A stretch of 64,000 nt of DNA from a virus (IMGVR_UViG_3300025870_000011:5780-69779), one strand, 5' to 3'. Numbered from the stretch's first letter, positions 1-61,052 are shown. The notes: generated by a model not told the origin, from the sequence alone. Numbers and translations: made by a program.

Positions 1-111
1 GCAAGCGATGAACAAGCCGAAGATGGGCGAAGTTTTTGGCAAAATGCAAGGGCGACGGGAAAAACAAGTAAATACGGTTCATGGAGGGATGATTTGTATG
101 ACCGCCTTTGA
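1..111 (+). CDS. C-terminal fragment of a GNAT-like acetyltransferase paralog (5' end outside window)
   Basis: Not in ORF track. Frame 1 reads ASDEQAEDGRSFWQNARATGKTSKYGSWRDDLYDRL*, which parallels the tails of the next two genes (PDTSQSQEAHEMW...WRDA; PSHEQKAAAKEMW...RDDL). Confidence 0.6.
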   Translation, partial: ASDEQAEDGRSFWQNARATGKTSKYGSWRDDLYDRL

Positions 112-568
112 TCAAGCGTGGGCGTTATTGAAAATGCCAATACAACCATACACCATAAGAGAGGTTGATGCCCCAGATTTTGAAAGTGTGTATCATGCCG
201 ATTTTTATGATCCCGAAAGTGATGAAACATTACCAATGGAAGTTGGTATATCGGGTGAGTATAACTCAATTGAAGGCTTAATCCGAGATTCTAACCAAAA
301 TAAACCAAATAGAACAAGAGCATTTGCTCGCTATGACGAGGGAGATCAAAGGGTTATGAACATGAAAGATGTTGAAACTTCTGAACCGTTCCGAAGAAGG
401 GGGTATGCTTCTGGCTTGTATGATTTGATGGCTTATGCCTTATCTCAAAGAAAAAAACCATACAGATTAGAACCTGATACAAGCCAATCACAAGAAGCGC
501 ATGAAATGTGGAATGCCAAAGCACCAAGCGGCCATTGGCCTCCAGAAAGAGCATGGAGGGATGCGTAG
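98..568 (+). CDS. GNAT-family acetyltransferase with N-terminal FDQAWALLK leader
   Basis: Acetyl-CoA motif A 'VETSEPFRRRGYASGLYD'. ATG at 98 follows GGAGG (83-87), so it is preferred over the ORF-track start at 8. Confidence 0.75.
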   Translation: MTAFDQAWALLKMPIQPYTIREVDAPDFESVYHADFYDPESDETLPMEVGISGEYNSIEGLIRDSNQNKPNRTRAFARYDEGDQRVMNMKDVETSEPFRRRGYASGLYDLMAYALSQRKKPYRLEPDTSQSQEAHEMWNAKAPSGHWPPERAWRDA

Positions 569-1086
569 TGACCGCCTTCGACACCGCTTGGGCTATTGTG
601 AAGATGCCTATTGTTCCTAACCAGTTAGAATATCTCGGTGAAAGCCCCAACTTGGGCGGCGAAGATTCCTTTTTTACGGAAACAAAAAGGTGGAAAACAA
701 TGTTTCAAGATCCTAAAACGCAAGAATTGCTTCCCTTGTTTGTTGATTATGGGAATTATTTGAATCGAGAAGGTAAGAAATATCAATCGTTCAAAGGCTC
801 AATCGGTGATGATAAACGGGGTGGAAGATTGCGGTATGAGGGTGATGATAGACGATCTATAACGGGAGTCAATTTTCACGATAATGTTGAAAGTCGCCAC
901 CCTTATTGGACTGAAACAAGAAAAGATCATAGAGAGAAAGGTTATGCTTCCGCTTTGTATGATGTGATTGCTTATTTGATGCAAAATGAAGGGGAATATG
1001 CGTTAAACCCTTCACATGAACAAAAAGCGGCTGCAAAAGAAATGTGGAAAGGGCGAGAAAAATGGCCTGTGAGGGATGACCTATGA
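568..1086 (+). CDS. GNAT-family acetyltransferase with N-terminal FDTAWAIVK leader
   Basis: Motif A 'TETRKDHREKGYASALYD'; paralogous to 98-568 (FQDPKTQELLPL vs FYDPESDETLPM). GTG at 568 overlaps the upstream TAG and follows GGAGG. Confidence 0.75.
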   Translation: MTAFDTAWAIVKMPIVPNQLEYLGESPNLGGEDSFFTETKRWKTMFQDPKTQELLPLFVDYGNYLNREGKKYQSFKGSIGDDKRGGRLRYEGDDRRSITGVNFHDNVESRHPYWTETRKDHREKGYASALYDVIAYLMQNEGEYALNPSHEQKAAAKEMWKGREKWPVRDDL

Positions 1087-1706
1087 GTGCCTTCGACACC
1101 GCTTGGGAATTGTTAAAAATGCCAGCCGCAGATCGAAGATACACGCTTACAGAAGATGACATTAAGCGCATATCACAACTCGCATCTGAGGGCATGAGTC
1201 AAGCAGCAATTTATAGATTGTTCAACGAAGAAGGAATTCCAGTAACAAGAGGGATCGTTCACTATTGGGCAAACGAAGCCTCTCGAATGAAGCAACGTGA
1301 GAAGAATGCGCTTCGACGGTATGAACCAGGATCAGAAGAGAATGCGAGAAGGATTGTACGTGATCAAGAAAAGCGTAGAGAAAATTGGGAAGCAGATCCT
1401 GATATGAAAGAACGACATGAACTTCAATCAACAAAGGATGAAACCCGATCAACAAGACACACGTTTAGAGGAAAACCAGTTGAAGAAGCCATGAAGCGAC
1501 TTGAAAGTGGTGAATTGAGGCGACCTAATGCTAAGGTTTCAGAAGAAGATCTAAACAAAGCCATGTCGGGTCGATTCCCTGCGCGTTATCCAGGCAACTG
1601 TGTTGTTTGCCAACGATCTATCTCACCAGGAGAAGAAGTCAGATACAATCGACTATTGGGTGGTATTTCCTGTCCGTTTGATTGCGGGAGGAATTACATT
1701 GTCTGA
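1083..1706 (+). CDS. HTH-domain protein with leader and C-terminal Cys-rich (Zn-binding) module
   Basis: Leader FDTAWELLK; HTH-like 'IKRISQLASEGMSQAAIYRLF...VTRGIVHYW'; after LNK|A a module 'ARYPGNCVVCQRSISPGE...CPFDC'. Confidence 0.6.
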   Translation: MSAFDTAWELLKMPAADRRYTLTEDDIKRISQLASEGMSQAAIYRLFNEEGIPVTRGIVHYWANEASRMKQREKNALRRYEPGSEENARRIVRDQEKRRENWEADPDMKERHELQSTKDETRSTRHTFRGKPVEEAMKRLESGELRRPNAKVSEEDLNKAMSGRFPARYPGNCVVCQRSISPGEEVRYNRLLGGISCPFDCGRNYIV

Positions 1707-2559
1707 TGTGTTTGAACAGGCATGGGATTCTATCGTCAAGATCGATGAGGGGATGTGGGAAGAGATCTATGCCCCTCTCTTGGCTGAAACTGCGGGTATG
1801 GGCAAAAAACAGTATGCGCGCCATACTGTTGATTTTGTTCCTACATCCTTTGCTATGGATGTTATGCGAAACAGATCATGGAATCAAGACTTGATGGATG
1901 ATGATTGGGAAGAATTGATTTTGGATAGCAATAATCACGGAACTGGTGATACTGGCTTTACAATGGATGAATTGATGGAGAGTATAATGGATCGAGGTTT
2001 TACGATGGAGGGGGCGAACAGACATGGGAGAATAGATCCTTCTTTTGAGGTGAACCCGCATGGATTGGATATGTATGAAGGAAATCACCGACTTCTTGCT
2101 TTGAATGCTTTAGGTGCGCCCCATGTTCCTTTCATGGGTCGTGGAGTGAAGGGAACAAAGGCTAACAATGCACCACACAAAATGCCTCTTTCACAAGAAG
2201 CATTGAACCTTTGGGGAAAGCGTGAAAATTATTCCCTTGCTGATTACATGACAGGAGGTTCACCTCAAATACCCCCTTCTTGGCTTTATGGTCGTGAAAT
2301 GGTTCCCGGTATGGGTCGCCTTGAGCCTGTGAACAGGTTGGGTGAACCTATTGATATGTTCACGCACATAAGCGAAACAGATTCTAATATGGATTCTTTA
2401 GAAGCCTTTCATGCTCGAAATAAACGTGAGCCAGTAAATCCATTCGATCCAAAATCAGTCAGTCGTAATCAACAACTGTTACAAAGCGAAAACTTTCGTA
2501 ACAAGGCCAAATGGAATTGGAAGCAAAAACCTTCTTGGAAAGTAGTGTTTGATGATTGA
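1699..2559 (+). CDS. ParB/Srx-like domain protein with leader FEQAWDSIVK
   Basis: 'ELMESIMDRGF...YEGNHRLLALNALG...VPF' matches the ParB-N GxxR signature. TTG at 1699 follows GGGAGG. Confidence 0.65.
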   Translation: MSDVFEQAWDSIVKIDEGMWEEIYAPLLAETAGMGKKQYARHTVDFVPTSFAMDVMRNRSWNQDLMDDDWEELILDSNNHGTGDTGFTMDELMESIMDRGFTMEGANRHGRIDPSFEVNPHGLDMYEGNHRLLALNALGAPHVPFMGRGVKGTKANNAPHKMPLSQEALNLWGKRENYSLADYMTGGSPQIPPSWLYGREMVPGMGRLEPVNRLGEPIDMFTHISETDSNMDSLEAFHARNKREPVNPFDPKSVSRNQQLLQSENFRNKAKWNWKQKPSWKVVFDD

Positions 2560-2743
2560 AGGTGACGAGCAAGTATTGTTCAGATCGCCCAAAATCCAAA
2601 CGTGCGTTGTTCGAGAGTAACTACGTGATAAACAGGAGTCGCTACTTGCTCGCCAGTTTTGGAAATGTATTTTTATAATTAAAGTCTCTCTATACACTTA
2701 CTGATTAAGATAAGTTCTTGACTGATAGTACAATCCGTCATGC

Positions 2744-4069
2744 ATGGGCGAGGCTTTATTTCAGGAAGCCTACTCGACTATGATTGAGAAGATGACCCCT
2801 AAAGATCTAAAAGTGATGGATGAAGAATATCTACGCAGATTTCCGCAAATGCCACTTCGAGATGATTTTGGCGCAATCACGCAGTATTCAGGTGGAGGGT
2901 TTGCCGATGAAGGTTTCCGATCAGCAGGAATCCCGATCTTATCAACTATTGACGCATGGAAACCTGCAAACGATGTCAGATTATTAAATCAAAAAGAAGG
3001 TGAAGTCCTAAGTGGTTATCTTGGCAGAGATCAAGGCCAAAGACATCCAGATGATATGGTTGAGCATTACGCCGACATCTCACAAGGAAAAAAGATTCAC
3101 TTTCACGCATCGCCTCCGTGTCAAGCATTCACAAGAGCGCAACGACAAGGAACGAGTGTTGCGGCTAAAACACCCGAAGAAATGGAAGAAGATAGAGTCG
3201 CTGCTATGCCTTTGATTGGGGATGCTCTCTACACAGTAGAACAGATGATAAAACACCCTGATATAGACTTGGCATCATGGTCACTTGAAGAAGCACCAGA
3301 TGTTGCTAAATATCTAAAAGAAAATCCACATTTTCTCGATAAATATGTCTCCCCTCCCTTTAAGAAAAAGGTAATGGGACTATTGACGAATCATCCAAAA
3401 TTAGATGCAATTGACTTTGGCGCACCTACTACAAGAGGTCGAACATTTATCGGTGAAGGATGGAATGCAGAACCTACGCATTACAATTCAACTTACAAAC
3501 CAAAACCAGGTAGGCTACCTAACCCTTCTGTGCTTGATTTTTTGCCACATCTTCAACGAGAAGAAGAAGAGAACAAGCCAAATAAATTAGCAAAATTGAC
3601 TGATTATAGAGATAAAGGTCGAATCAGTCAAGAAGTTCTTGATCACCTCATGGCTCAAGGTTACATTTCACAATCGGGTGGCATCAATCCAGGTAAAGGG
3701 GGTGCTTCTTGGCGTAACATAAATTCAAAGCATCCAAGTCAAGAAGGCGGTCCTGGAACGGCTTTCCTACACAGAAAACCACTCACTTCATCTGTAACTG
3801 GAATTACACATAACAAACCATCGCATATGTATAATCGGTATTTGACCCCTCAAGAAATCATGATGCTTCAAGGTGGGCGACCTACTTACGATCTATCACC
3901 AGCAGAAGGACAGTATTGGCGTAAAACTAATCCACGATCAGGCAACGTAAAATCAATTGCTGCTGTTGATCAAATAATTGGTAATGCAGTTGCCCCTCCA
4001 GTAGCAAGAGCAATAGGCAGATCAGTAGTAGGTAACAACCTCCAACGCAGGTTGATGGATTATAATTGA
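2744..4069 (+). CDS. DNA (cytosine-5)-methyltransferase-like protein
   Basis: Motif I YSGGGFADEGF, motif IV SPPCQAF, motif VIII FGAPTTRGR, motif IX RYLTPQEIMMLQG, motif X IGNAVAPP. Motif VI is divergent (EEA). Confidence 0.85.
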   Translation: MGEALFQEAYSTMIEKMTPKDLKVMDEEYLRRFPQMPLRDDFGAITQYSGGGFADEGFRSAGIPILSTIDAWKPANDVRLLNQKEGEVLSGYLGRDQGQRHPDDMVEHYADISQGKKIHFHASPPCQAFTRAQRQGTSVAAKTPEEMEEDRVAAMPLIGDALYTVEQMIKHPDIDLASWSLEEAPDVAKYLKENPHFLDKYVSPPFKKKVMGLLTNHPKLDAIDFGAPTTRGRTFIGEGWNAEPTHYNSTYKPKPGRLPNPSVLDFLPHLQREEEENKPNKLAKLTDYRDKGRISQEVLDHLMAQGYISQSGGINPGKGGASWRNINSKHPSQEGGPGTAFLHRKPLTSSVTGITHNKPSHMYNRYLTPQEIMMLQGGRPTYDLSPAEGQYWRKTNPRSGNVKSIAAVDQIIGNAVAPPVARAIGRSVVGNNLQRRLMDYN

Positions 4070-4078
4070 GGTGATCGC

Positions 4079-5080
4079 ATGAATTGTTTTGAAACGGTTT
4101 GGGATTTCATCAAAGCAATTCCAGAAATTGATCTCGATGATTTTACGCTCGATCAGGTGGTAAATACAGATTATGTATTTCCAAAAGGCGGCCAAATTAT
4201 GAGGCACATGAAAACCCCTCAAGGAAAAAAAGAAATGGCGATGATGCAAGCAAGGAACATTGATTATCCATTAGAAGGGATAGATCTTCCTAAATATCAA
4301 CCTAAAAACGCATGGAATTTGCATGAGGAACTAAGACCTTTGCTTGGTGGTTCAGCAGTTCAAGGAAAGCGATGGGATTTTCTCTCTTCACCAGGAAAAA
4401 TGATAAATAGAACTTTTTCATTACCAACTCATATGTGTAATGTTGGGGGGAAACTACGAGAAGTTCCAGGTTCAGTTTGTGAACATTGTTATGCACACGG
4501 AAGTAATTATAATTACAATGCAGTTCAACAAAAATTGCTTCGTAACTACAACGCTTTGACCAGTAGCGATCCTGTCGAATGGGCATCAGCCGTTGCAGGT
4601 GCAATTCCTGGTGAAACAACGAGATTTCCAATGTTCAGATTCCATGATTCAGGAGATTTGCATTCTGCATCACACGCTTCAATGATTGCGGATATTTCTT
4701 CTAATAATCCAGATGTAATGAATTGGCTTCCAACAAGAGAATGGGAAATGATTGCCGATTTAGTTCGAGCAAGAGGGGGAGATCTCCCTCCTAATTTTGT
4801 TCCACGTATATCTTTGCCAATGGTAAATCAAACGCTTGATAATGACGAAAATGAACGAAGAGGTGTTGATTCATTACCTCAAGAGTTGATTGATTTGATA
4901 CAGGATAACCCTCAAGTAGATTATTCAACTGTTATTACAAAACCAGAATATCGCAGTAGCCGTTCATCTGTTTTATGTCCTGCTTCAAATCCAATAGTCG
5001 GAGGTAATACCTGTGCTGATAACAAATGTAGTGCTTGCTATAATCCAAAAGTCAAAGCAACGGAGTATTTCAAACATTGA
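4079..5080 (+). CDS. Phage Gp88-like Cys-rich (Fe-S / radical-SAM-like) protein with leader FETVWDFIK
   Basis: FSLP...C...SVCEHCYA, FRFHDSGDL, WLPTRE, PPNFVPRIS and a C-terminal CPA...C...C..C cluster, as recalled for the GP88 family. SD GAGGTGA. Confidence 0.7.
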   Translation: MNCFETVWDFIKAIPEIDLDDFTLDQVVNTDYVFPKGGQIMRHMKTPQGKKEMAMMQARNIDYPLEGIDLPKYQPKNAWNLHEELRPLLGGSAVQGKRWDFLSSPGKMINRTFSLPTHMCNVGGKLREVPGSVCEHCYAHGSNYNYNAVQQKLLRNYNALTSSDPVEWASAVAGAIPGETTRFPMFRFHDSGDLHSASHASMIADISSNNPDVMNWLPTREWEMIADLVRARGGDLPPNFVPRISLPMVNQTLDNDENERRGVDSLPQELIDLIQDNPQVDYSTVITKPEYRSSRSSVLCPASNPIVGGNTCADNKCSACYNPKVKATEYFKH

Positions 5081-5089
5081 GGCAATACT

Positions 5090-7354
5090 ATGAGCGAAAT
5101 TTTTGAGAAGGCTTGGTATGATCAGTTCAAGCGCAATAAGCGTGATCGGCCTGAGATGGGTACGGTTTCTCTTGATGGCGTTACGGCATATCCTCTCGAA
5201 GATAGATCAGGTAATCTCAATTTAGACCGAATGACCAATTTTCGAGTGGGCAGACCACACAACATAGAGGCATTCCGTAACATCGACTCTACGAGTTTGC
5301 ATTTAAATCCCGGTCGTATAAAATCTACTGGGGAAATCAGACCAAATACTGGCGCATTAAGCGTTATGAGAGGTCAAAAACCAATAGCGATTTCCAACGT
5401 ATTGCCAATCAATAATCCTTTCTTTAGATTAGATGAAAAGGCGCAACGTTCAGCATTTCTTGGCAATCCTGAACGGGATCGAAAAGCAAATCGAACTGCC
5501 CATATGTGGACGGCAGGAGATCTGAGTGCGGCAGAATTGAATGCGATGATGGGTGGGACACAAACACCTCAACAAATTCTTGGCATGACTGATGATTTGG
5601 TTTTAGATCGAAACGACTTTGGCGACAGTATGTTATCATGGAAGTATGGTGATGATCTGTACGAAGCCCCTCGTTTTGCATATGAGGTTTATGATCTGGA
5701 AGATAAGTCATTGCCACACAATAAAAAATGGAAAATGGAAAATCGAAAATACCGTGATGATTTTGCTTTGCCATTCCGTTCCGCACGTGGTCACAGAGTA
5801 TCTGGTTCAGTAGATCCATTGCTCAGAATACCGCTACACTTCGCTGGTCAGCAAGCACCTGAACTCGCACGTCAAAGCAAAGGAGGCCGATATGTTGAAT
5901 GGGAACATCCAGAAACGGGCTATCGCTATGAAGGCGTTCCTGTTCCATTGAGTTTGACTGGTGATTATGATCAACCTGCGGTTTCGAGAGGTATTTCAAC
6001 TGGAACGCATGGATTGTATTTTGATCCACGTGATTTGACGGGCGCAGGAAGAGAGGTTTGGGATTCCGCTTTATCAGGCGATGTTATTCGCAGAGCGTTA
6101 GAGAGCATACAAATACGAGATGAAATGAGTCTTGAAAAGATGCCGCATCCATCTTCGGGGGATTTCAGCCGAAGGCAAGCATTACCAACTGCGTTTCGAC
6201 TTCAAGGGGTCAAAAACAATACTATGTATTCTCAAATAATGGCAGCATTACGTGAAACGCTTGGTGATCGTGAAATGATTGAAACGTTTGGCGGTGGTGG
6301 AGGACTCTCATTGGGGTTTAAGCCATCAAAAGCAATCATTAACGACATAAACCCCGACATAGGAAACCTGATGCGAAGAATCATCCGAGAACCAATGAAA
6401 ATAGACCCGGAACAATACAATGTGGGCGTTGGCGAACCAATCACAATCCCTCATCCATCATTAGGTCAAATGAACATTGGAACAATGACGGAAGAGATGA
6501 AGAATCGTTTTGGTGAAGGCAACAGAACCTTTATTCCAGCACATTTTTACAATCTTCGCAATCAATACGCTGGATTAAGGGAAAAGGCTGCAAGTGGAAC
6601 TGCAACTCCCGAAGAACACGACAAAATGGCTGAAATCTTCTATATGCTTCAATTGACTGGCTTCAACAGTTTGGTTCGATACGGCAAAGGAAAAGAATTG
6701 CCTTCATGGGATAATCCATATTCAACTCCACCAGGAACTACACGTTCAAAGCACCATATCCCCGAAGATGAAGAATTAGCAGGTTCGTTTTTCCAACAAA
6801 TGAAGGATGCTGGACTTTACGACGCTGAAAAAGACCGATACAAAGGCCGTATTCAACCAGGGGGCAACGCTTTCCGACCAACTCCAATTCGAGGGGGAAT
6901 CGGAGAACACGATTTCGCACCCTGGCATGATGCTATGAAAGACTGGGATTGGAGGACTGGAAATGCTTTTGAGTTCTATGATGACATCAAAGACCAAATG
7001 AAAGCCGACAAGAACCTATTGACATTTGACCCGCCTTACTTTGGTGAAGAGGGCGCACATGGTTTCTTTGGAAAAGATGAGCAAGAACGGCTTATTCAAC
7101 AAATGATTGATGCAAAGGACAGGGGCATTCCGACTATGGTTTTCAATTCAATGCATCCTTCAATTGTTGAACCGTTGCGTGAGGCTGGATTCCACATTGA
7201 ACCATTAGATCGAAAAGACCTTTCAAGTTCCGATCCAAACTCAAGAGGAACGGTTGGAGAACTTATGGCTATGGCGAACATTGATCAAGACGCATTCCAA
7301 ACAGCATGGGAGAGGCGTAAGAATCCCCCACCAGCGCAACGCACTTTGTTCTAA
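5090..7354 (+). CDS. Bipartite protein: unknown N-terminal domain plus Dam-like (D12 class) N6-adenine DNA methyltransferase
   Basis: FRLQGVK, motif I ETFGGGGGL, INDINPD, GFNSLVRY and catalytic DPPY, all in the C-terminal half. Leader FEKAWYDQFK. Confidence 0.8.
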   Translation: MSEIFEKAWYDQFKRNKRDRPEMGTVSLDGVTAYPLEDRSGNLNLDRMTNFRVGRPHNIEAFRNIDSTSLHLNPGRIKSTGEIRPNTGALSVMRGQKPIAISNVLPINNPFFRLDEKAQRSAFLGNPERDRKANRTAHMWTAGDLSAAELNAMMGGTQTPQQILGMTDDLVLDRNDFGDSMLSWKYGDDLYEAPRFAYEVYDLEDKSLPHNKKWKMENRKYRDDFALPFRSARGHRVSGSVDPLLRIPLHFAGQQAPELARQSKGGRYVEWEHPETGYRYEGVPVPLSLTGDYDQPAVSRGISTGTHGLYFDPRDLTGAGREVWDSALSGDVIRRALESIQIRDEMSLEKMPHPSSGDFSRRQALPTAFRLQGVKNNTMYSQIMAALRETLGDREMIETFGGGGGLSLGFKPSKAIINDINPDIGNLMRRIIREPMKIDPEQYNVGVGEPITIPHPSLGQMNIGTMTEEMKNRFGEGNRTFIPAHFYNLRNQYAGLREKAASGTATPEEHDKMAEIFYMLQLTGFNSLVRYGKGKELPSWDNPYSTPPGTTRSKHHIPEDEELAGSFFQQMKDAGLYDAEKDRYKGRIQPGGNAFRPTPIRGGIGEHDFAPWHDAMKDWDWRTGNAFEFYDDIKDQMKADKNLLTFDPPYFGEEGAHGFFGKDEQERLIQQMIDAKDRGIPTMVFNSMHPSIVEPLREAGFHIEPLDRKDLSSSDPNSRGTVGELMAMANIDQDAFQTAWERRKNPPPAQRTLF

Positions 7355-8823: not shown

Positions 8824-9555
8824 ATGTCTGCTCTAATCGCAGGGCATATGCTCATGGCATCTGCATCAGCATTTTATTCATTTTATAGAATTCTTAGACC
8901 ATATCGAATCGGTGTGTATGGTCCTTCAATGGTTGGAAAAACAACTCTCGATCAATACCTTACCGTTCCTGGTGACATTGATCCAATCCCTCTTGCTATG
9001 AGAACCGCACACCCCAAAGCAAACACTCATACTGGATTTAGAGAGCCAAACGAAACAAGAAAACAAATTCGTTTAATTAAAGACAAAAAACCAATTAGAA
9101 CAACTGATTTAGCGGGAGATGCGATGTTTCGCAATCTATGGATCGATGATATGTTTCGTAGAAATGTTGAATTGATAATATTCATGGTTGATCACAGAGC
9201 AATGACCTCACCACAGTTTGCTATGGATGCTTCTGCCAGCCTTTCATACTTAGTTGATAACATTACAAAAAAAAGCATCACTAAGAACATAACTCGAAAA
9301 GCAAAAAGAAAATCAAAAAAGTATCAGCCAAAGTTAATCTGTCTCATGATTAACAAAATGGATATTTGGTGGGATGATCGGGCGCAATACTTGTGGCAGA
9401 TGGGATTGCGAAAAGAACACCCAATAGTTGCGCCGTTTCGTGAATCATTGAAACGTTTGAGGAAAGCAGGCTATCGTGCTGAGATCATGGCAATGTCATC
9501 ACAACACGGAATAAATGTTGAAAAGGGTTTAATTGAATTATTGGAGTCTTTGTAA
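8824..9555 (+). CDS. small Ras/Arf-like GTPase
   Basis: G1 GPSMVGKTT, G2 RT, G3 DLAG, G4 NKMD, G5 SSQ; hydrophobic N-terminal helix. Confidence 0.85.
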   Translation: MSALIAGHMLMASASAFYSFYRILRPYRIGVYGPSMVGKTTLDQYLTVPGDIDPIPLAMRTAHPKANTHTGFREPNETRKQIRLIKDKKPIRTTDLAGDAMFRNLWIDDMFRRNVELIIFMVDHRAMTSPQFAMDASASLSYLVDNITKKSITKNITRKAKRKSKKYQPKLICLMINKMDIWWDDRAQYLWQMGLRKEHPIVAPFRESLKRLRKAGYRAEIMAMSSQHGINVEKGLIELLESL

Positions 9556-12438: not shown

Positions 12439-12875
12439 AATCAGTCCGACACTTGATGCTCAAAGATATGCCTGAGCATGATTCTATTCTAAACACAAAA
12501 ATTCCAAAAGATGAATGGACTGTTGAAGATTTGCTTTTTTATACAGATTCAGTTGATCAGGTTGTTAAGCGATGGGTGGAGGCTATTTCAGAACACCTTG
12601 AATATCCGAGCGAAGTGGTTTCAAACATATGGGGTTCTTTGATTATGACTCGTTTGCTAATTGATGATTTAAAAATACTAAAAACTAATCCTGGTGCTGA
12701 TTGTATCTCTTTACTTGACGGAACACAGATTATCACCGATCTTAAACAAAAGATGTTGCCTATGTCAAAATCATATGCGCGTGTACCTTCATTGGCTCAA
12801 TGGTACATGACCCTGCCAAATGAAATAGATGTAGTGTATAGAGCCATACGACGGAGGTTGAAGGATGGTCAGTAG
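12435..12875 (+). CDS. hypothetical protein
   Basis: ATGA overlap with the upstream gene; 146 aa. Confidence 0.65.
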   Translation: MKSVRHLMLKDMPEHDSILNTKIPKDEWTVEDLLFYTDSVDQVVKRWVEAISEHLEYPSEVVSNIWGSLIMTRLLIDDLKILKTNPGADCISLLDGTQIITDLKQKMLPMSKSYARVPSLAQWYMTLPNEIDVVYRAIRRRLKDGQ

Positions 12876-14160
12876 CAACCCAAGAGAATCTGTTCTTTGG
12901 ACTCCAAGAACTCAAGAAATTACAGGCGGATTCCGCCCACGTGAGATGATTGATCACGACATCAATCCGAATGAGGATAGTGACGGTTTATCTCATCATG
13001 GTCGTGAAACACCAGAAGATACCCATAGTCGTGATCAGAAAGATCCTGCAAAACGAAAAGAACGTGCAGTGGCTGAATTAGAACCAAAGATACCGCATAT
13101 TAGTATTAAACCAGAAAAAATAGATGATACTTTAGGAAGATCGCCCCAATTTGAACAAGAACAAACTATGCTTGAAGCAGGTATTGGACTGGACATGAAT
13201 AGAAACGGAATCGGTTTATCAAATGGATTCAATGCGGGTTCTGTTCGTAGCGAAGGACCTAACGTAAAATATGGTCAAAGCAATTCAGTAGTCCCTGCTA
13301 TGCTTGGAAAAACCAGCGACGAGATATTTAATTTTACTTGGGATAGCATCTCAAAAGGCAGACGGAAATACAAAGGCCGTCATATGTATGATGATGAAGA
13401 TTCTGATGAAGATGAACGTAAAGGAAAGGCCAAGCGAAAGCGAAAAAAGAAGCGACAGGCAAAGAAAGGGAAGGCGGCACGTGGAGGCCGACAAATCAAA
13501 TCTATGACGAAGCGACGTGCTGGTAATCTTGAATTGGATGTTGATCGAGGTTCACGTAGGCAAGCGTTTCACCCAATTAAACACACAGAAGCAGTTAGGG
13601 GCGTAGGCCGTTCAAGATCAGAGTCTATTCCGCTTCGATTGAGAGATCCTATTGCATGGGAACGAAAAAAGGCGTATGAGCGAATGCGAAGGCAAGTCGG
13701 TTCTTTGCCACGTGGATTAACTCACCACGCTGATACAAGAGGTGTGGGAACAAAGCGTGGTGCTATTCAAGGAGGCACAATTGGTCCTGGAACAAAGTTG
13801 CCAACCGTTGCACGTATGGGAACTGGGACAACAAAATTTTCAAGAAACGCAATAGGTGATGCTCTTGGAATTCACGATCCTTTAGTTGCTAAATCAGACA
13901 TTCACAAATCCAAATTAAATATTTCACGTTCCGAGATAATGGCTATGAAACGTAAGATTGAGAAGTTAGTTCAACAACTCAACAAATTGACAAAAGCCAC
14001 ACCTGAACTTGGAAACGAAGGTAAGGTTGGCGCACAGGTAAATGGCGATACTGCATCAGCACCAACTGGTGCAACTAAATTGAATGAGGAAGAGAAACCT
14101 TACAGGGCTTTTGTCGATATGGCTTTGAGCAATGAGATGGGATTAACAGGCAAAAGGTGA
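12865..14160 (+). CDS. putative internal virion protein with internal tag and highly basic segment
   Basis: FNFTWDSISK|G at 13321-13359, followed by a Lys/Arg-rich stretch (KAKRKRKKKRQAKKGKAARGGR). Confidence 0.6.
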   Translation: MVSSNPRESVLWTPRTQEITGGFRPREMIDHDINPNEDSDGLSHHGRETPEDTHSRDQKDPAKRKERAVAELEPKIPHISIKPEKIDDTLGRSPQFEQEQTMLEAGIGLDMNRNGIGLSNGFNAGSVRSEGPNVKYGQSNSVVPAMLGKTSDEIFNFTWDSISKGRRKYKGRHMYDDEDSDEDERKGKAKRKRKKKRQAKKGKAARGGRQIKSMTKRRAGNLELDVDRGSRRQAFHPIKHTEAVRGVGRSRSESIPLRLRDPIAWERKKAYERMRRQVGSLPRGLTHHADTRGVGTKRGAIQGGTIGPGTKLPTVARMGTGTTKFSRNAIGDALGIHDPLVAKSDIHKSKLNISRSEIMAMKRKIEKLVQQLNKLTKATPELGNEGKVGAQVNGDTASAPTGATKLNEEEKPYRAFVDMALSNEMGLTGKR

Positions 14161-29586: not shown

Positions 29587-30945
29587 ATGGCAACAGTCCT
29601 TGAACACAAATCGGCATCATGGAGTGCCGAAGGTTCAGATTTCTTGTTGAAGTCCTCTGGAAGCGGAGGGGAACTTTATGTTGCTGGCTATGCATCTGTT
29701 GATATGGTCGATAAGCAGGGAGATAGAATCCCTACAAACGCTTTGAAAAAGGCATTTGGGCAATTCATGGGTAACAAAGCATTCCGCAATGTGCAGTTGG
29801 CTCATTCAGGAATCCAAGTCGGTGAAGTAGTAAATGATCACACCGATTCAAATGGACGTGTTTGGAAATCAGAAGTTGATGATCACGGACTTTTCGTTGT
29901 GTGCAAGATTCGCAGCGATATTCAGAAAGCACGTGAAGTGCAGAAACAAATTCGTAGCGGAGATCTACGAGCATTCTCGATTGGGGGTCAAGCCCTATTC
30001 CGTGTTAGTAAAACAACACCTGAACTTGGCAACCATCGAGAGATTACCGATCTTGAATTGCATGAAATAACGCTATGCAAGAAAGGAATCAACCCCGAAT
30101 CGACTTATACGATACTAAAAATGGAAGACGATAACATGAGCAACACAGAAGTTTTGAACGAAATAAAAGCAGGATTGAGCGAAGTTCTCAAAGAACTAAG
30201 CGATAAAGAAGATGAAAAAGGCGACATGAAGTCCTATAAAGAAGAAAAAGGATCTTACATGGAAGATGATGACGATAGCGACACAAGAAAGTCTCAAGAA
30301 GCCGCATTAGATTATGTTACCACTCTCGAAAAATTTGCACACGAAGCAGGAGTAAACTTAAACGGACTTCGCGACCACTTTGGTTTGGAGAAGGCATACC
30401 TTCTCGAACAAGGTCGTGGAGGCTACAACCATCGTGGACAAGGTGATGAGATCGGATCTGGCGAAGATGCAACTGAGCCTTCTTATCCTTCTCTCCCAAG
30501 TCCTGGTGGCAATCAACACGTCATCAAGTCTCCAAGTGTGCGAAACATGAACATGAACGCACCAAATGGTAACGGGAATGTCATCAAGTCTTTGACTCCT
30601 GATGTTCTCGAAAAGGGCTACCGACATTATGCTTCTCTTCGTGATGAAGAAGCAGTAAAGGGGCTTGTTGAGAAAGAATGGCAAAACCGATACGATGCTG
30701 AAACACAACAGGCTCTTGAAGTTCGCAAGGCAAACGATGTTGGACTCCAACTAAATGCCCTCCGTAACGAAATTTCATCCCTTAAGAATGAAAACGCATC
30801 TCTTCTAAAGAGCGATGTTACACCTACTTCCCCCACAACAACGATCCGTGTGCCAACTCATTCCGAGTTTGCACAGATGGGCAATGACCTTGACGGATGG
30901 CGAGCCGCAGAAGCACTCGCTGCTAAAGCATTGAGGGGCGAGTGA
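29587..30945 (+). CDS. HK97-type prohead protease with C-terminal scaffold-like region
   Basis: VAGYASVDMVDKQGD, LAHSGIQVG (His), AFSIGG (Ser), LHEITLCKKGINPES; acidic coiled-coil C-terminus. Confidence 0.92.
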   Translation: MATVLEHKSASWSAEGSDFLLKSSGSGGELYVAGYASVDMVDKQGDRIPTNALKKAFGQFMGNKAFRNVQLAHSGIQVGEVVNDHTDSNGRVWKSEVDDHGLFVVCKIRSDIQKAREVQKQIRSGDLRAFSIGGQALFRVSKTTPELGNHREITDLELHEITLCKKGINPESTYTILKMEDDNMSNTEVLNEIKAGLSEVLKELSDKEDEKGDMKSYKEEKGSYMEDDDDSDTRKSQEAALDYVTTLEKFAHEAGVNLNGLRDHFGLEKAYLLEQGRGGYNHRGQGDEIGSGEDATEPSYPSLPSPGGNQHVIKSPSVRNMNMNAPNGNGNVIKSLTPDVLEKGYRHYASLRDEEAVKGLVEKEWQNRYDAETQQALEVRKANDVGLQLNALRNEISSLKNENASLLKSDVTPTSPTTTIRVPTHSEFAQMGNDLDGWRAAEALAAKALRGE

Positions 30946-30972
30946 AACTCAAAATAAATGGAGATGACTAAG

Positions 30973-32142
30973 ATGACACAAGGATATATTAGAACAATCG
31001 AAGACATGGAACGCCTTTACTATGGTGCTGGCGCAGGAACAAACGCATGGGCATACAGCGGAACAGACTTACTCAAGGCTGATTCACCGTTGATGTCCTC
31101 AACCGCTGGAACTTACCAAGCGATCTTTGGTCGTAAGGTTTGGTCACAACTCAACCAAGAATTTAACGCATTTTCAATCCTCCCAAAGAAACCTTGGGAA
31201 AAGAGTGGATGGCGTGTTGTTACTGGCAAGCCTGATGACGCTGTTGGGCTTCCTGAAAACGGAACACTTCCTGATTCAACCAAGCCAACTTTTGAAGAAG
31301 TAGCCACCAAGCCAAAGACTGTTGCGAGCAAGTTCGACCTGAGCGAAACCGCAATGTTCCTTGCAGACAAGGATGATGGTCTTGGCGATGCAAGAGCCGT
31401 CATTAAGATGGAAATGTCAAAATCTCACGCAGAGTCAATCAACAAGATGCTTTTGAAGGACTTTGGAGACAACGCTACAAACGGCGGTGGACTTGCAGGT
31501 AACTCCTTTGAATCTCTTGATCGAGCAACTTCTTCTTCCCTTTCAGAAACGGCTGCTTTTGCTGAGGTCGATAACCTATCGGCTCACAATATGTATTCAA
31601 TTACACGCAACTCTACTGGAACACGAAGTTGGTTTGATGCTAACGTCGATGTCGGTGGAAATGGTGCTGAACGTCCTCTAACTCTTAACATTCTTGACGG
31701 TATGTTCCGTGAAGTTTGGGAGCGTGGTGGTCAGCCAAAGGTTATGCTAACAGGCTATGACACCATTGAGAAGATCCAACAACTCTTGCAGCCGCAACAA
31801 CGTTTCACTGAAATGAAGCGTGTTACGCCATCTGTAAACGGTGTTCAAGGAATACCTGGAATGGAAGGTGGATTTGTCGTCGCTACATACAACGGTGTCC
31901 CGATCATCCCTGCAAAGGACGTTCACGCACCATCTGGTGGACTATCTCGCATCTATATGCTTGATACAGACTATATGTATTTCTGCACAGCAAAACCAAC
32001 TCTTTACCACGAAAGTGGAATTGAAACTGGCGACCCATTCGGTATCAACCGTCTTGGTCAAGTCGGACTCTTCCACACAATGGGTGAACTTTGGCAACTC
32101 TTCTATGGCGCACACGGCAAGGTCAGAGATCTTAGTGCATGA
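30973..32142 (+). CDS. major capsid protein (HK97 fold)
   Basis: Directly downstream of the protease; about 390 aa; 'YQAIFGRKVWSQLNQEFNAFSILPKKPWEKSGWRV', 'YNGVPIIP', C-terminal 'HGKVRDL'. Start could also be 30958 or 30964. Confidence 0.9.
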   Translation: MTQGYIRTIEDMERLYYGAGAGTNAWAYSGTDLLKADSPLMSSTAGTYQAIFGRKVWSQLNQEFNAFSILPKKPWEKSGWRVVTGKPDDAVGLPENGTLPDSTKPTFEEVATKPKTVASKFDLSETAMFLADKDDGLGDARAVIKMEMSKSHAESINKMLLKDFGDNATNGGGLAGNSFESLDRATSSSLSETAAFAEVDNLSAHNMYSITRNSTGTRSWFDANVDVGGNGAERPLTLNILDGMFREVWERGGQPKVMLTGYDTIEKIQQLLQPQQRFTEMKRVTPSVNGVQGIPGMEGGFVVATYNGVPIIPAKDVHAPSGGLSRIYMLDTDYMYFCTAKPTLYHESGIETGDPFGINRLGQVGLFHTMGELWQLFYGAHGKVRDLSA

Positions 32143-33858: not shown

Positions 33859-34173
33859 ATGCCACGTCTTGAAGTCGGTGAAATTGACCTTGAAACTTCT
33901 TTAGAGATAAAGAAGAGAAGGAACACTCGTATGTTTGAAATGGCAACGAGTCAAGGATCAATTGGCGAAAAAGATTCTCCGTTCAGTAAAAAGAATATGG
34001 ATCGTGCAGGTACATCTTTTGTTAAAGTTACAAAACAACAAGCACAGGACATTCAAAACATAGGCTCTGGAACACGCTGTATTGCGTGTGGGATGCTCCA
34101 CTTCTGTTGGACTCCCGAATGTGCCGTATGCGGGGAAGCAATGCACTACAACTTAGGAGGACACCACCAATGA
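33859..34173 (+). CDS. C-terminal Zn-ribbon protein
   Basis: CIACG...CAVCG; ATG at 33859 after GAGGGGG. Confidence 0.65.
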   Translation: MPRLEVGEIDLETSLEIKKRRNTRMFEMATSQGSIGEKDSPFSKKNMDRAGTSFVKVTKQQAQDIQNIGSGTRCIACGMLHFCWTPECAVCGEAMHYNLGGHHQ

Positions 34174-34379
34174 GCAAAGAAGATCATACACCAAATACCG
34201 AAGAAAAAGCATTTCAGAAGTCATGGGAAGATATTATCAAATTTGGTGATTGTCCCGTATGTCATGGTGATCCTATGGCTTGCCCAACACCAGATGTACC
34301 TGCGTCGTTTTGCAGAACTCGAAAGAACGCAATTAAACATATGAGAGTACGGGCAGTACCGCCGATGCGCCGCCTATGA
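34170..34379 (+). CDS. small Cys-rich protein carrying the tag FQKSWEDIIK
   Basis: ATGA overlap, SD AGGAGG; CPVC...CP...C after the tag. Confidence 0.6.
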   Translation: MSKEDHTPNTEEKAFQKSWEDIIKFGDCPVCHGDPMACPTPDVPASFCRTRKNAIKHMRVRAVPPMRRL

Positions 34380-58224: not shown

Positions 58225-58812
58225 ATGAGTAAAACATTTTCAAAGCCACAGGGCGTTGGTGGAAAACCAACGGTGGCCAAGAGCATGGATGTTGATCCAA
58301 GAGATGACATTTTGCGAAGAAAAGTGTTGGAATTCATTTTAGAAAGAATGAAATCAACGCAGGAAAGAACAGGAGATGGTTCGAGTTGGGATAAATATGT
58401 TCAATTAGTTCTGATTGCTCAACCAGAACAGTTGTTGCAGTTGTTAGAAACAATGGAAAGTCATGAAAATGAAGAGATAAAATCTATCGCCAGATCTATT
58501 CGTGAGGAATATGAGTCTTTATCAGAAGATTATGTAAATATGTTTGAGGGGTCTGATTTTACCGCATCATCGGATCCATTTGAAGCCACATGGGATTCAA
58601 TCGCCAAAGGTCGCTTTCACGGCTACACTCGATCCACTATAAGCGATAGGCCATATAGACAGGCAGATCATCGCGTATGGGACATTTCACGTAAGGTAAA
58701 GCGTGAAAGAACAAAACGACGATACAAGCGTAACAAGAGCAGAGGGACAATTAGACCTGCCATGCGTCGTCAATTAGGAGCAGGGGGCAAAAGAGCCTCT
58801 ACAAAACGATGA
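58225..58812 (+). CDS. protein with internal tag FEATWDSIAK followed by an Arg-rich peptide
   Basis: Tag at 58576-58611, then GRFHGY...RKVKRERTKRRYKRNKSR. Confidence 0.6.
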   Translation: MSKTFSKPQGVGGKPTVAKSMDVDPRDDILRRKVLEFILERMKSTQERTGDGSSWDKYVQLVLIAQPEQLLQLLETMESHENEEIKSIARSIREEYESLSEDYVNMFEGSDFTASSDPFEATWDSIAKGRFHGYTRSTISDRPYRQADHRVWDISRKVKRERTKRRYKRNKSRGTIRPAMRRQLGAGGKRASTKR

Positions 58813-60232: not shown

Positions 60233-60258
60233 TAAAATCACCTTCCAATTTCAGACCG

Positions 60259-60696
60259 TCAATATACATTGGAAAATTGTTGTCGGAATTTCCTGTCTTT
60301 TCGAGAAGGGTGGTCCCGATTGATTCTGTTTTCATATTCATTTTCTCTAATTCTTCTTAAAGCCCTTATGTCATCAGATGTAGTTTGCATTGCTTTTGGC
60401 CGCTTCCCAAATAATTTCTCTTGCCCTTTCTCTGGTCCATGTTTGTCTGTACTGTACTCCAATCGAATAGGATTTAGGTATTCTTCGCCTCTGTCCTTTT
60501 GCTTTTGTCTGCCTATCTCATTAAGACGAGTTACTGGAGGCGTAACTTCTGGATTTCCCGAATGATCTTCACCTCTCGATCCAGAGAGGGGCAAGTCCAA
60601 TGCACCAGCAGGATTTCGTTGATATTCCTTTATGCCTTTTTCATTATCGAGTTCTCTTTTTAGTAAAGACCATGTTCTGTGAAATGCATTGCTCAT
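60259..60696 (-). CDS. hypothetical protein with N-terminal tag FHRTWSLLK
   Basis: Starts MSNAFHRTWSLLK|R. Confidence 0.65.
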   Translation of the reverse strand: MSNAFHRTWSLLKRELDNEKGIKEYQRNPAGALDLPLSGSRGEDHSGNPEVTPPVTRLNEIGRQKQKDRGEEYLNPIRLEYSTDKHGPEKGQEKLFGKRPKAMQTTSDDIRALRRIRENEYENRINRDHPSRKDRKFRQQFSNVY

Positions 60697-60698
60697 AA

Positions 60699-61052
60699 TT
60701 ATCGCCCTCTAATCCAACGATCAAGATCTTCCATAGCCTCTTCACGACCCGCATCAATCTCTTCATCAGTTGGTGTGTTACCCCTTTCATCTGATACTGC
60801 ATTGCGAACATAGCCGTTCTGATCTTGGGTTTCAAGAAGTGGCCTCAATGTGGATAGAAATATCTGTTTGCATTCAAATACCATGTTTTCATCCAACAAG
60901 CGTTGTGGTTCAGCAGGTCCGTAGTAAGGCTTATCGCTGAACAATTCATCAATTTTTTTATCTCGTTCATCATCTTTCTTTATCGCATCCCATGTGCGAT
61001 TAAAACTATTTTTGTGTCTATTTTCCATTTTCTTATTGCTCAACAATTCCAC
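60699..61052 (-). CDS. hypothetical protein with near-N-terminal tag FNRTWDAIK
   Basis: KNSFNRTWDAIK|K; start codon uncertain. Confidence 0.6.
   Translation of the reverse strand: MELLSNKKMENRHKNSFNRTWDAIKKDDERDKKIDELFSDKPYYGPAEPQRLLDENMVFECKQIFLSTLRPLLETQDQNGYVRNAVSDERGNTPTDEEIDAGREEAMEDLDRWIRGR

Follow-up and report, generated by a model that had tools for sequence, protein, structure and literature searches.

Why should a dozen proteins of one virus, unrelated in their main domains, carry the same short peptide? The question is raised by a 64,000-nucleotide stretch of IMGVR_UViG_3300025870_000011 (positions 5780-69779), referred to here as the window. An earlier note on this DNA described about 12 copies of a motif, F-x-x-[AST]-W...K, and read it as a portable label that binds the scaffold or procapsid, is clipped at its Lys and delivers enzymes with the DNA.

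The tag in the window and at the left end of the contig

All 12 instances are present in the window sequence (Table 1), although the coordinates first given for them are those of the ORF starts and not of the motif phenylalanines, from which the tag positions in the table are counted. Nine of the 12 lie 3-5 residues past a start codon with a GGAGG-like Shine-Dalgarno sequence upstream, while the copies at 61004 and 34212 stand 8 and 14 residues, respectively, from the nearest ATG. The copies at 13327 and 58579 are internal, and that at 2759 is degenerate, with Y replacing W. Two further copies were absent from the earlier note: FQTAWERRK, 19 residues from the C-terminus of the Dam protein, and the degenerate FNDAYDQMLS at 61855 on the minus strand, on a DUF6321 protein.

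Table 1. Tag-bearing ORFs of the window, with the protease and major capsid protein genes; a slash marks the likely cut
Feature	Coordinates	Strand	Tag and remarks
GNAT-like tagged ORF	98..568	+	MTA-FDQAWALLK-MPIQP, tag 107-133
Tagged paralogue of ORF 98..568	568..1086	+	GTG start; VTA-FDTAWAIVK-MPIVP, tag 577-603
Tagged ORF	1083..1706	+	MSA-FDTAWELLK-MPAAD, tag 1092-1118; phrog_1581; HTH_7 only E 0.096
Tagged ORF	1699..2559	+	TTG start; SDV-FEQAWDSIVK, tag 1711-1740; without Pfam family
C5 cytosine DNA methylase, tagged	2744..4069	+	MGEAL-FQEAYSTMIEK, degenerate tag 2759-2791; Pfam
GP88-family protein, tagged	4079..5080	+	MNC-FETVWDFIK, tag 4088-4114; Pfam
D12/Dam-type DNA methylase, tagged	5090..7354	+	MSEI-FEKAWYDQFK, tag 5102-5131; Pfam
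Dam methylase, second tag copy	7295-7321	+	FQTAWERRK, close to C-terminus
Internal-tag ORF	12865..14160	+	..TSDEI-FNFTWDSISK-GRRKYKGR, tag 13327-13356
S78 prohead protease with scaffold-like C-terminal part	29587..30945	+	Pfam Peptidase_S78, residues 29-183
HK97-fold major capsid protein	30958..32142	+	Likely maturation site DLLK40/A41DSPL, Lys codon 31075-31077
Small Cys-rich basic tagged protein, head-tail module	34170..34379	+	FQKSWEDIIK-FGDCPVCHG, tag 34212-34241
Internal-tag ORF	58225..58812	+	..DFTASSDP-FEATWDSIAK-GRFHGY, tag 58579-58608
Tagged ORF	60259..60696	-	MSNA-FHRTWSLLK, tag 60684-60658
Tagged ORF	60699..61028	-	FNRTWDAIK, tag 61004-60978; ATG 8 residues upstream, or GTG at 61052

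The tag of the window is strongly non-random and N-terminal. The strict motif F-x-x-[AST]-W-x(3,4)-K is matched 11 times by the 59 ORFs of the window (21,150 aa in all), where 2000 residue shuffles give 0.20 on average and never more than 3; within the first 60 residues it occurs in 8 ORFs, against a shuffle mean of 0.04. The final Lys is not an artefact of the search pattern: four whole genomes, surveyed for F-x-x-[ASTV]-W with a start codon at most 8 residues upstream, gave 84 sites, of which 68 have K at W+4 or W+5, while the remaining 16 are mostly located within larger ORFs that happen to have a GTG or TTG close by. As had been claimed for TerL, tail and GTPase-region genes, no tag was found on the TerL, portal, protease, major capsid protein (MCP), tail or GTPase-region ORFs among the window ORFs scanned. 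FYRVYLLWK in TerL, which matches the search pattern, was rejected as a tag.

Leftward of the window the contig runs on for another 5.8 kb, and 9 further tagged ORFs, missing from the earlier note, lie there. Within the first 13.1 kb of the contig, 16 of the 17 plus-strand ORFs begin M-[TS]-A-F-[DE]-x-A-W-x-[LIV]-[LIVM]-K. The sole untagged one encodes an HMGL-like enzyme, so that a place in the operon does not by itself account for the tag. The original observation is thus confirmed, and it is larger than was first described.

Selection, spread and the proteins that carry the tag

Related genomes in IMG/VR hold 3-21 copies each, and five near-complete relatives give 10-18 pattern matches apiece, against 0-1 for a reversed-pattern control. 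In 596 Gb of cellular genomes there were 69 single matches, equal to the chance estimate (about 69), and none of these 69 follows M-[TS]-A. The tag is specific to one virus clade, the magrovirus-like marine archaeal tailed viruses. Since the motif is not above chance in cellular genomes, it mimics no host signal. A Sec, Tat or class III/pilin secretion signal, marked by a hydrophobic core of at least 10 residues, a twin arginine or a pilin cleavage motif, was also considered and rejected, the tag having no hydrophobic stretch and no RR, and its cellular matches being at chance level.

We collected 268 tagged ORFs, mostly from loci retrieved with a pattern requiring FDTAW...K, so that the logo of this sample is biased to the FDTAW variant. 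The tag is N-terminal in 236 of them, and in 173 of these 236 exactly 3 residues precede the F. Clustering of the 268 ORFs with the tag removed gives 109 groups between which no similarity is detectable, and 71 of 80 cluster representatives match no Pfam family. The tagged genes are cassette-like and differ between genomes. Internal tags sit 119-422 residues into their ORFs, at module junctions; a module whose tag is N-terminal in one genome is found elsewhere behind a different domain with the tag internal, and ORFs with two tags also occur. In 91 F[DE]TAW-type tags the codons vary (TTT 55 and TTC 36, GAC 56 and GAT 30, AAA 63 and AAG 28) while the residues stay, which places selection on the protein level. 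About 100 clusters, protein-level selection and a single virus clade give strong support to the proposal that the tag is a portable label addressing unrelated proteins.

Among the tagged kinds are DarT/Tpt1-like ADP-ribosyltransferase (ART) folds, GNATs, a pair of DNA methylases and peptides of very basic character; the largest family has matches to DarT at E 1.7e-5 and to Tpt1 at E 3.6e-4. Three window modules behind tags have pI 9.7-12.0, and small basic tagged proteins are encoded within the head-tail and tail modules. Behind the internal tag of ORF 12865..14160 (cluster 13, conserved in G001 and G003) lies a basic part of 267 aa with pI 10.8 and 24% K+R, and behind that of ORF 58225..58812 a peptide of 67 aa with pI 12.0 and 36% K+R, the same basic module having an N-terminal tag in L230 and L058 (cluster 5). 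The small Cys-rich protein of ORF 34170..34379 belongs to a cluster of 8 members, 4 of which have the tag 5-7 residues from the start. Relatives of the Dam methylase (cluster 6) have the tag N-terminally or internally, and the G003 relative of the C5 methylase reads FQEAWSSMLMK where the window copy is degenerate. By analogy, the tagged kinds would fit virion-delivered cargo.

The names formerly given to these proteins have fared unevenly. Pfam matches bear out the C5 methylase, GP88 and Dam labels. The GNAT label of ORF 98..568 has a weak Pfam match (Acetyltransf_CG, E 0.0013, below the cut-off), and draws support from an RRRGYA motif in the alignment and from the JGI name of a relative. The HTH label finds nothing beyond the HTH_7 match of Table 1, and for the ParB label no ParB match was found. 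In the AF2 model of ORF 98..568 (pLDDT 80.8) the tag forms a helix at residues 3-11 ahead of a beta-rich domain.

Two explanations that dispense with a peptide signal can be weighed against these data. That the conserved element is a nucleic acid, a regulatory or translation-initiation RNA element or a recombination handle, would suit tags placed directly at gene starts behind a Shine-Dalgarno sequence and the cassette-like, variable genes; this is highly improbable and largely refuted by the codon data, for synonymous positions vary freely while residues are kept, and it also sits badly with tags deep inside ORFs and with the untagged HMGL-like gene of the same block. Chance, or the plain paralogy of one family with a common N-terminal domain, has a probability close to nil: a GNAT-like cluster of 20 and an ART-fold cluster of 44 are true paralogues, but paralogy is refuted by 109 clusters alike in the tag alone and by its presence on Pfam families as unlike as Dam, C5-MTase, GP88 and DUF6321, and chance by the shuffle statistics.

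The lysine signature of tag, capsid protein and protease

The S78 prohead protease of the HK97 type cuts the N-terminal scaffold domain from the MCP after a basic residue, and we know of no family of tagged cargo proteins in HK97 itself. Here too an S78 protease gene (Peptidase_S78, E 5.6e-10) adjoins the gene of an HK97-fold MCP, which is related to MCPs from haloarchaeal siphoviruses; TerL, portal and tail genes are also present. The MCP model aligns with HK97 1ohg_A over 255 residues (Z 17.5, rmsd 3.7), HK97 residues 119-383 matching model residues 55-393. An ungapped count back puts HK97 residue 104, which we take to be the first mature residue, at MCP residue 40-41. In agreement with a propeptide boundary at this place, the AF2 model has low pLDDT for residues 1-40 and high pLDDT from about 41, and the DLLK40/ADSPL site is invariant in 27 of 27 relatives. 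Among 124 homologues, with identity down to about 30%, the boundary column holds K in 100 and R in 12, the P3 position is L, I, F, V or M in 101, and the sequence is variable upstream and conserved downstream; 16-108 residues precede the column among the 115 rows listed. Lys or Arg at the presumed propeptide boundary is a likeness to HK97, and the difference is that a site of this sort here also ends a portable tag. For phi12, an HK97-like phage, the only likeness given between two mapped sites is a K or R at P1 (PMC8569155).

The protease with its scaffold-like part has [LIVMF][LIVM]K at K22, K178, K314 and K334, invariant in 26 of 26 sequences. The invariant candidate sites read FLLK22/S, TILK178/M, VIK314/S, VIK334 and K408-S409; K178 marks the end of the protease domain, K314 and K334 lie in the linker, and sister-clade proteases have LLLK just ahead of the domain. 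The tag ends in the same hydrophobic-hydrophobic-Lys signature as MCP K40 and protease K22, K178, K314 and K334, a common tripeptide. The likeness is suggestive but not specific, because [LIVM][LIVM]K is common and VIK150, also invariant, lies inside the mature MCP fold. The residues past the Lys differ, being mostly M or A then P in tags and A, S, T or K then D in the MCP family. In a distant tag-bearing subgroup and in a tag-less sister clade, the presumed MCP and protease sites have the Lys and no F-x-x-A-W. The proposal that the tag is clipped at its Lys gains circumstantial support from a signature common to tag, MCP boundary and protease sites.

A proposed capsid address and its relation to known systems

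A T4-like signal for capsid targeting and cleavage is the best reading of the tag, and we hold its chances to be even. On this reading F-x-x-A-W-x-L forms a single short amphipathic helix whose F, W and L share a face, and which may dock the protein onto the assembling procapsid, whether at the scaffold, the inner capsid surface or the portal. The terminal hydrophobic-hydrophobic-Lys would be a cut site for the virus's own S78 prohead protease, which would remove the tag inside the procapsid and split the modules of fused ORFs. The cargo (GNATs and enzymes with an ADP-ribosyltransferase fold, DNA methylases, peptides that are very basic and DNA-binding-like, and many uncharacterised proteins) would remain inside the head and pass with the DNA into the next host. 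Binding to scaffold or procapsid and delivery with the DNA, as the earlier note had them, we infer from the analogy with T4 and from the kinds of protein tagged.

In T4, a 10-residue N-terminal capsid-targeting sequence (CTS) on IPI-III and Alt is removed by the prohead protease gp21, and it is through the CTS that the ADP-ribosyltransferase Alt and basic internal proteins are packaged (PMC9026906). In T4 the first part of the CTS is proposed to target and its last residues to form the protease site, a layout that may hold here also; the same protease removes an N-terminal propeptide from the capsid protein, and gp21 has near its own N-terminus a sequence fitting its cleavage logo. Common to both systems are a short N-terminal peptide (10 residues in T4, 12 here) on unrelated proteins, cargo with basic DNA-associated proteins and an ADP-ribosyltransferase, and cargo genes that vary as in an arms race. 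However, the two are unrelated in sequence, the protease of this virus is of Pfam S78 (HK97 type) and not of the gp21 type, the host is archaeal, tags also occur internally at module junctions, and 10-21 tagged genes per genome with about 100 cargo families contrast with a handful in T4, where function has been demonstrated and not, as here, proposed. The P1 residue of the cleavage site is Glu in T4 and would be Lys here. Because of the S78 protease and the haloarchaeal affinity of the MCP, the tag system is an analogue of the T4 CTS system and not a member of it.

Encapsulins use a short peptide to send enzymes inside an HK97-fold shell, and their shells are among the best structural matches of our MCP model (Z 18.2-18.7). 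Encapsulin cargo peptides are mostly C-terminal and are not known to be removed by a protease, and encapsulins have no genome, portal or tail; an encapsulin cargo-loading peptide was rejected, since genes for TerL, portal, protease and tail all occur here. In the giant phages phiKZ and SPN3US, which have bacterial hosts and far larger genomes, the prohead protease reportedly cuts the propeptides of ejection proteins, and many head-internal proteins are said to be processed and then ejected; these propeptides reportedly share a cleavage motif only, with no common targeting helix. Phage P1 packages DarB through its N-terminal 30 residues, a signal of at most 30 N-terminal residues sufficing to load a large enzyme and a reporter, and its cargo protects or prepares the incoming genome (PMC9024508). 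The available text of that source reports no consensus among the Dar N-termini, whereas the consensus here is nearly invariant, and describes no proteolytic removal of DarB.

Against a capsid address, a block of early genes for host takeover could equally account for 16 tagged genes at a single end of the genome, and two tagged genes stand in a minus-strand block apart from the structural genes. Packaging about a fifth of the proteome is, to our knowledge, beyond any known system. A rival idea is that the tag is a docking helix, never removed, for a hub outside the capsid (a host protein, or a non-structural viral one such as a chaperone, a scaffold for replication or for a "factory", or a site on a membrane), at which many takeover enzymes would gather in the infected cell. 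The F, W and L spacing of i, i+4 and i+7 and the modelled helix would suit a short helix fitting a groove, the blocking of tagged genes at one end resembles that of early genes, tags are present on the minus strand, and most tagged proteins, enzymes or unassigned, could work in the cytoplasm. We nevertheless think such a hub unlikely, as it leaves unexplained the invariant Lys at the tag's end, its agreement with the sites of MCP and protease, the strongly basic peptides that follow tags in structural modules and the full motif of internal tags at module junctions. Somewhat less probable still is a signal for processing or activation alone, by which a viral or host protease would cut after the Lys in the cytoplasm, separating fused modules or activating toxic enzymes without packaging. 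The hydrophobic-hydrophobic-Lys end in common with the presumed protease sites, the resemblance of two-tag and fused ORFs to small polyproteins, and the many toxin-antitoxin-like families (DarT-like, GNAT), for which a pro-form would make sense, speak for it. Yet cleavage alone would not need a conserved F-x-x-A-W helix fixed 3 residues from the start; the presumed sites of the distant subgroup and the sister clade have the Lys without it; S78 prohead proteases act inside procapsids; and the loss of 12 N-terminal residues is unlikely to activate about 100 different folds.

The capsid-address reading can be carried further, to a proposal that we regard as possible but rather short of probable: that the capsid is an effector-delivery device with a peptide code, in which whatever begins with the tag, or follows one, is loaded, cut after the Lys and injected, and that the 3 to about 20 genes per genome, of some 100 families, are a fast-exchanging virion-borne arsenal, histone-like basic peptides included. 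Gene fusions would be tolerated in it because the protease separates the modules. If this is true, it would be the largest tag-addressed virion cargo set known to us, and we found no description in the literature of such a set in an archaeal virus. As a capsid address, the tag would mark injected effectors, ADP-ribosyltransferase-fold and acetyltransferase enzymes among them, which may shut down the uncultured Poseidoniales hosts; cargo loading in the style of T4 would have arisen independently, with an HK97-type protease, in archaeal viruses; and a 12-residue tag could be used to load proteins into HK97-fold shells. Should it prove not to address the capsid, a code for docking or processing that is this large and virus-wide would, in a tailed dsDNA virus, be new in its own right. 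Magroviruses are reported to be abundant in the surface ocean (PMC5434244), and for viruses related to them the tag provides a single testable handle on dozens of uncharacterised genes.

Tags along the contig and among related viruses

All 12 motif instances listed in the earlier note are present in the window, which comprises bases 5780-69779 of a source contig of 69,779 bp. In its strict form, F-x-x-[AST]-W-x(3,4)-K, the motif occurs 11 times in the 59 ORFs of the window; 2000 residue shuffles averaged 0.20 occurrences and never exceeded 3. The tags are located directly behind start codons with a GGAGG-like ribosome-binding site upstream. Over the whole contig 25 regular-expression matches fell in ORF context; four of these, one of them in the large terminase, were discarded as chance, and the 21 copies judged real include two internal ones, one on a small Cys-rich protein and two on minus-strand ORFs. 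The tag opens 16 of the 17 plus-strand ORFs in the first 13.1 kb, namely all seven at window positions 98-7354 and nine in the 5.8 kb to the left of the window. Early genes, too, could be expected to form such a block at a genome end.

The sole untagged plus-strand ORF of the block encodes an HMGL-like protein (HMG-CoA lyase/aldolase family, E 3.6e-24) and is a possible auxiliary metabolic gene; the relevant passage of a 2017 magrovirus study records that no such genes were observed (PMC5434244). On the minus strand, the DUF6321 protein begins with a decayed tag, FNDAYDQMLS, that has no Lys, and its counterpart in the related genome G004 carries the full MSLA-FSNAWPLLK, which suggests that the tag can be lost.

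The structural genes are listed in the table. Among 50,697 phage records the major capsid protein (MCP) matched archaeal viruses only, being about 30% identical to that of the haloarchaeal siphoviruses HVTV-1, HCTV-1 and HCTV-5, with matches to three methanogen virus records as well. Published magroviruses of Marine Group II archaea show this same pattern of matches: the part of the study concerned gives 33% identity solely to haloarchaeal siphovirus MCPs (PMC5434244). In G006, another related genome, the MCP gene (contig bases 18149-19297, minus strand) contains one in-frame TGA, to be explained perhaps by a sequencing error, by recoding or by the gene being broken.

Features of the contig (window positions unless stated; K numbers are residues of the protease-scaffold protein)
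Feature	Position	Strand	Remarks
HMGL-like gene	L235:3192-4094 (genome bases, left of window)	+	untagged
Tagged GNAT-like proteins	98-568, 568-1086
Small GTPase-like protein and neighbours	8824-11466		weak GTP_EFTU/MMR_HSR1 matches; small membrane-like proteins, 344-aa protein, Met/Gln/Gly-rich repeat protein
MGMQG repeats of the Met/Gln/Gly-rich protein	10580-11218
Cys/His-rich protein	11728-12438		236 aa; hemerythrin HHE cation-binding domain at Pfam cut-off (25.3 bits)
Very basic sequence behind tag	12865-14160		267 aa, pI 10.8
Large terminase	19520-20956		T4-type
Portal	22321-24120
1146-aa protein	26104-29544		no Pfam or PHROG match
Prohead protease (protease-scaffold)	29587-30945	+	Peptidase_S78, long C-terminal extension
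Site K22			ahead of S78 domain
Site K178			S78 domain end, TILK/M
Sites K314, K334			Gly/Pro/Asn-rich linker
Major capsid protein	30958-32142	+
Basic Cys-rich peptide behind tag	34170-34379		45 aa, pI 9.7
Tail genes			tube-like protein, tape measure, two giant tail proteins
SAP-domain protein	38910-39245		111 aa; DNA-binding domain, E 2.2e-12; within tail module
Two giant ORFs	45004-57872		1690 and 2600 aa; close the tail module
Very basic sequence behind tag	58225-58812		67 aa, pI 12.0
DUF6321 protein	61040-61906	-	decayed tag

Several neighbouring genes are shared with the relatives. The 1146-aa protein between portal and protease is kept in tag-bearing relatives at 47-76% identity (33% over 184 aa in G010, the relative with 63% MCP identity) and occupies the same place as HVTV-1 gene 115 ('zeta toxin', 1313 aa) without resembling it in sequence. 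Its role may be that of a head-internal protein or of a receptor for the tag. The block from 8824 onwards is conserved as far as G010, and the Cys/His-rich protein is kept in every tag-bearing relative tested. A Laminin_G_3 (concanavalin-like) domain spans residues 1396-1557 of the larger of the two giant ORFs, which makes both probable host-recognition proteins.

Searched with a degenerate DNA pattern encoding FDTAW-x-[L]-x-K, IMG/VR gave 68 loci on about 41 contigs, most with several copies nearby. Among bacterial and archaeal genomes totalling 596 Gb the FDTAW pattern met 69 loci, single copies scattered over unrelated bacteria, where chance would give about 69 if base frequencies are taken as equal; five lay within five residues of a start codon and none followed M-[TS]-A. 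Cellular genomes are thus at chance level. A looser pattern gave 10-18 matches in each of five near-complete relatives (0-1 for a reversed-pattern control).

Ten tag-bearing contigs occur among the best 80 of the 251 IMG/VR relatives of the MCP, those 80 being 75-99% identical to it. Of five additional contigs with tags, four encode this MCP at 62-79% identity and one is 61% complete. Tags become fewer with distance: a genome that is 95% complete, and whose MCP is 63% identical, has three N-terminal tags, two sister genomes (78% and 68% complete, MCP 42-43% identical) lack the N-terminal consensus tag, and HVTV-1 has no tag. The tag system is thus restricted to a single clade, within part of which it is expanded. 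A crude comparison of the tag-less genomes G011 and G012 (three-position patterns, rough ORF calls) found no other shared N-terminal motif. Searches with single tagged proteins gave no relative of the GP88-like protein in IMG/VR (related-locus search) and no match to a GNAT-like protein in the 50,697 phage records (tblastn, E up to 1). A homologue search with residues 1-40 of a tagged protein, which is no measure of the tag's spread, returned four proteins, all GNAT-like.

Proteins that carry the tag

Over all fetched loci, a sample biased to the FDTAW variant in that many loci were found by that pattern, 268 distinct ORFs carry the tag, 236 at the N-terminus and 32 internally. Exactly three residues precede the Phe in 173 of the 236, most often MTA (116 times) or MSA (21 times). 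Once the tag was removed the ORFs fell into 109 BLAST clusters, a few of them chance matches in unrelated phages, which bears out the claim that the tag sits on unrelated proteins. For 71 of 80 representatives no Pfam family was found at E 0.001; the other nine are Dam and C5 methylases, GP88, DUF5872, DUF6321 and zinc ribbons.

The largest cluster, with 44 members starting K-[AM]-P-x-[YF]-H-G-T, gave profile matches to the DNA ADP-ribosyltransferase DarT (E 1.7e-5) and to Tpt1/KptA RNA 2'-phosphotransferases (E 3.6e-4), and is therefore an ADP-ribosyltransferase-fold family. The second cluster (20 members, two of them in the window) shows the GNAT motif RRRGYA; JGI names a relative a GNAT acetyltransferase. 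The tagged EWTPNWR family has motifs that give the impression of a putative kinase-like protein; a PDB profile search with it yielded no convincing match (best E 0.099).

Modules that begin with the tag in some genomes have it internally in others, where a different domain precedes it, and some ORFs (at loci L007 and L043) have two tags. The tag thus marks the start of a module and is kept when the module is fused behind another. Linkers resembling D-F-[TY]-A-S-[ES]-D precede some internal tags. A 426-aa ORF at L043:2461-3738 joins two different ADP-ribosyltransferase-like modules and looks like a fusion of two adjacent tagged genes, since a degenerate internal tag, V-Q-K-A-W-E-L-I-K-A-P, stands ahead of the second.

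Lysine sites in the capsid protein and the protease

The last three residues of the tag are [LIV]-[LIVM]-K, and similar sites recur in the head proteins. In the MCP the sequence NAWAYSGTDLLK40/A41DSPLMSS is unchanged in 27 of 27 close relatives. Across an alignment of 124 homologues, down to about 30% identity, the K40 column holds K in 100 and R in 12, and the P3 position before it holds L/I/F/V/M in 101. Upstream of this column the sequence is variable (16-108 residues in 115 of the 124 rows); downstream it is conserved as [AST]-D-[AD]-P-x-x-[TS]-[TS]-T-x-G, and HVTV-1 reads GGMSK/ADNLL at the same place. An AF2 model of the MCP (pLDDT 86.8) is ill-defined over residues 1-40 and confident from about residue 41. 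The model matched HK97-fold capsid proteins with Z up to 21.4, and HK97 itself (1ohg_A) with Z 17.5, model residues 55-393 aligning to chain residues 119-383. Counting back 15 residues without gaps sets MCP residue 40-41 opposite HK97 residue 104, the first residue of mature gp5, which is cut after Lys103.

The protease-scaffold protein has [LIVMF][LIVM]K at four sites (table) that are invariant in 26 of 26 relatives; K408-S409 is also invariant, as is Ser131, a candidate catalytic residue. In a distant tag-bearing group and in the tag-less sister clade, SLLK or LLLK stands just ahead of the protease domain. For the HK97-like phage phi12, the part of the source consulted gives mapped basic P1 residues (PMC8569155). 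From this, and from the conservation and position of the MCP and protease sites, we infer that cleavage by this protease family would follow hydrophobic-x-Lys and that a predicted site of this type is present in the tag. The tripeptide of two hydrophobic residues and Lys is common, and VIK150 lies inside the mature MCP fold, so the argument rests on conservation and position and is not proof. An [AS]-W located 9-10 residues before the Lys in the MCP and protease propeptides of this clade was considered as a companion of the tag system and rejected, as tag-bearing genomes with 59-60% MCP identity lack the W.

Possible role of the tag

The tag is conserved as protein. Among 91 tags of the form F[DE]TAW.[LIV][LIVM]K, Phe is encoded by TTT in 55 and TTC in 36, the acidic residue by GAC in 56, GAT in 30 and GAA in 5, and Lys by AAA in 63 and AAG in 28; Thr uses four codons and Ala three. 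These codon data, together with the internal copies and the number of clusters, oppose an element acting at the nucleic-acid level, which is very improbable, and a motif arising by chance or paralogy, which we find scarcely credible. The Lys was not imposed by the search pattern: four whole genomes contain 84 F-x-x-[ASTV]-W sites that have a start codon no more than eight residues upstream, and Lys stands at W+4 or W+5 in 68 of them; most of the remaining 16 lie inside larger ORFs, such as the MCP. In line with the amphipathic helix that had been proposed, the tag of a protein modelled with AF2 (pLDDT 80.8) is a helix at residues 3-11, at lower confidence, ahead of a compact domain; from the sequence, one face of the helix holds F (i), W (i+4) and the first L (i+7).

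If the tag works as the T4 signal does, its F-x-x-A-W-x-L helix would anchor the tagged protein to some component of the head under assembly, and the head protease would then cleave after the tag Lys. We give this T4-like capsid address-and-cut signal about an even chance. According to passages of one T4 source (PMC9026906), the first 10 residues of IPIII are enough for packaging, residues 4 and 7 serving targeting and residues 8 and 10 processing; the head protease carries the corresponding motif close to its N-terminus, and the proteins packaged are basic internal proteins, about 300 copies of each, along with the ADP-ribosyltransferase Alt. Phage P1 loads the 250-kDa DarB by its N-terminal 30 residues, as a part of another source has it (PMC9024508), so packaging of large enzymes has precedent. 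The untagged HMGL-like enzyme within the block fits a tag that divides virion cargo from proteins active in the producing cell.

The helix might instead dock tagged proteins on a hub other than the capsid, which has a modest chance, or the tag might be a processing or activation signal without packaging, which has a small one. A complex prediction combining the MCP (alignment A3), the protease-scaffold (A4) and residues 1-45 of the GNAT-like tagged protein (A2) scored 0.01 against a mark of 0.32, was made without controls, and counts neither for nor against. Presence and absence of genes singled out no receptor, as the tag-less sisters share detectably only portal, protease and MCP.

Literature searches for FDTAW, FDxAW, MTAFDTAW and FDQAW did not find the motif, text matches being to the string 'fdraw', and titles and abstract openings revealed no capsid-targeting signal in an archaeal virus. 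The term 'N-terminal' is absent from three magrovirus genomics papers, whose supplementary tables might list such families. An address-and-cut signal of the T4 type is a known kind, for which no description of this motif or of an occurrence in archaeal viruses was found in the literature searched, as far as those sources extend. If the capsid address-and-cut signal is real, the system would, unlike that of T4, rely on a Lys-specific protease of the HK97 type and belong to an abundant clade of archaeal viruses, and its scale would be far larger.
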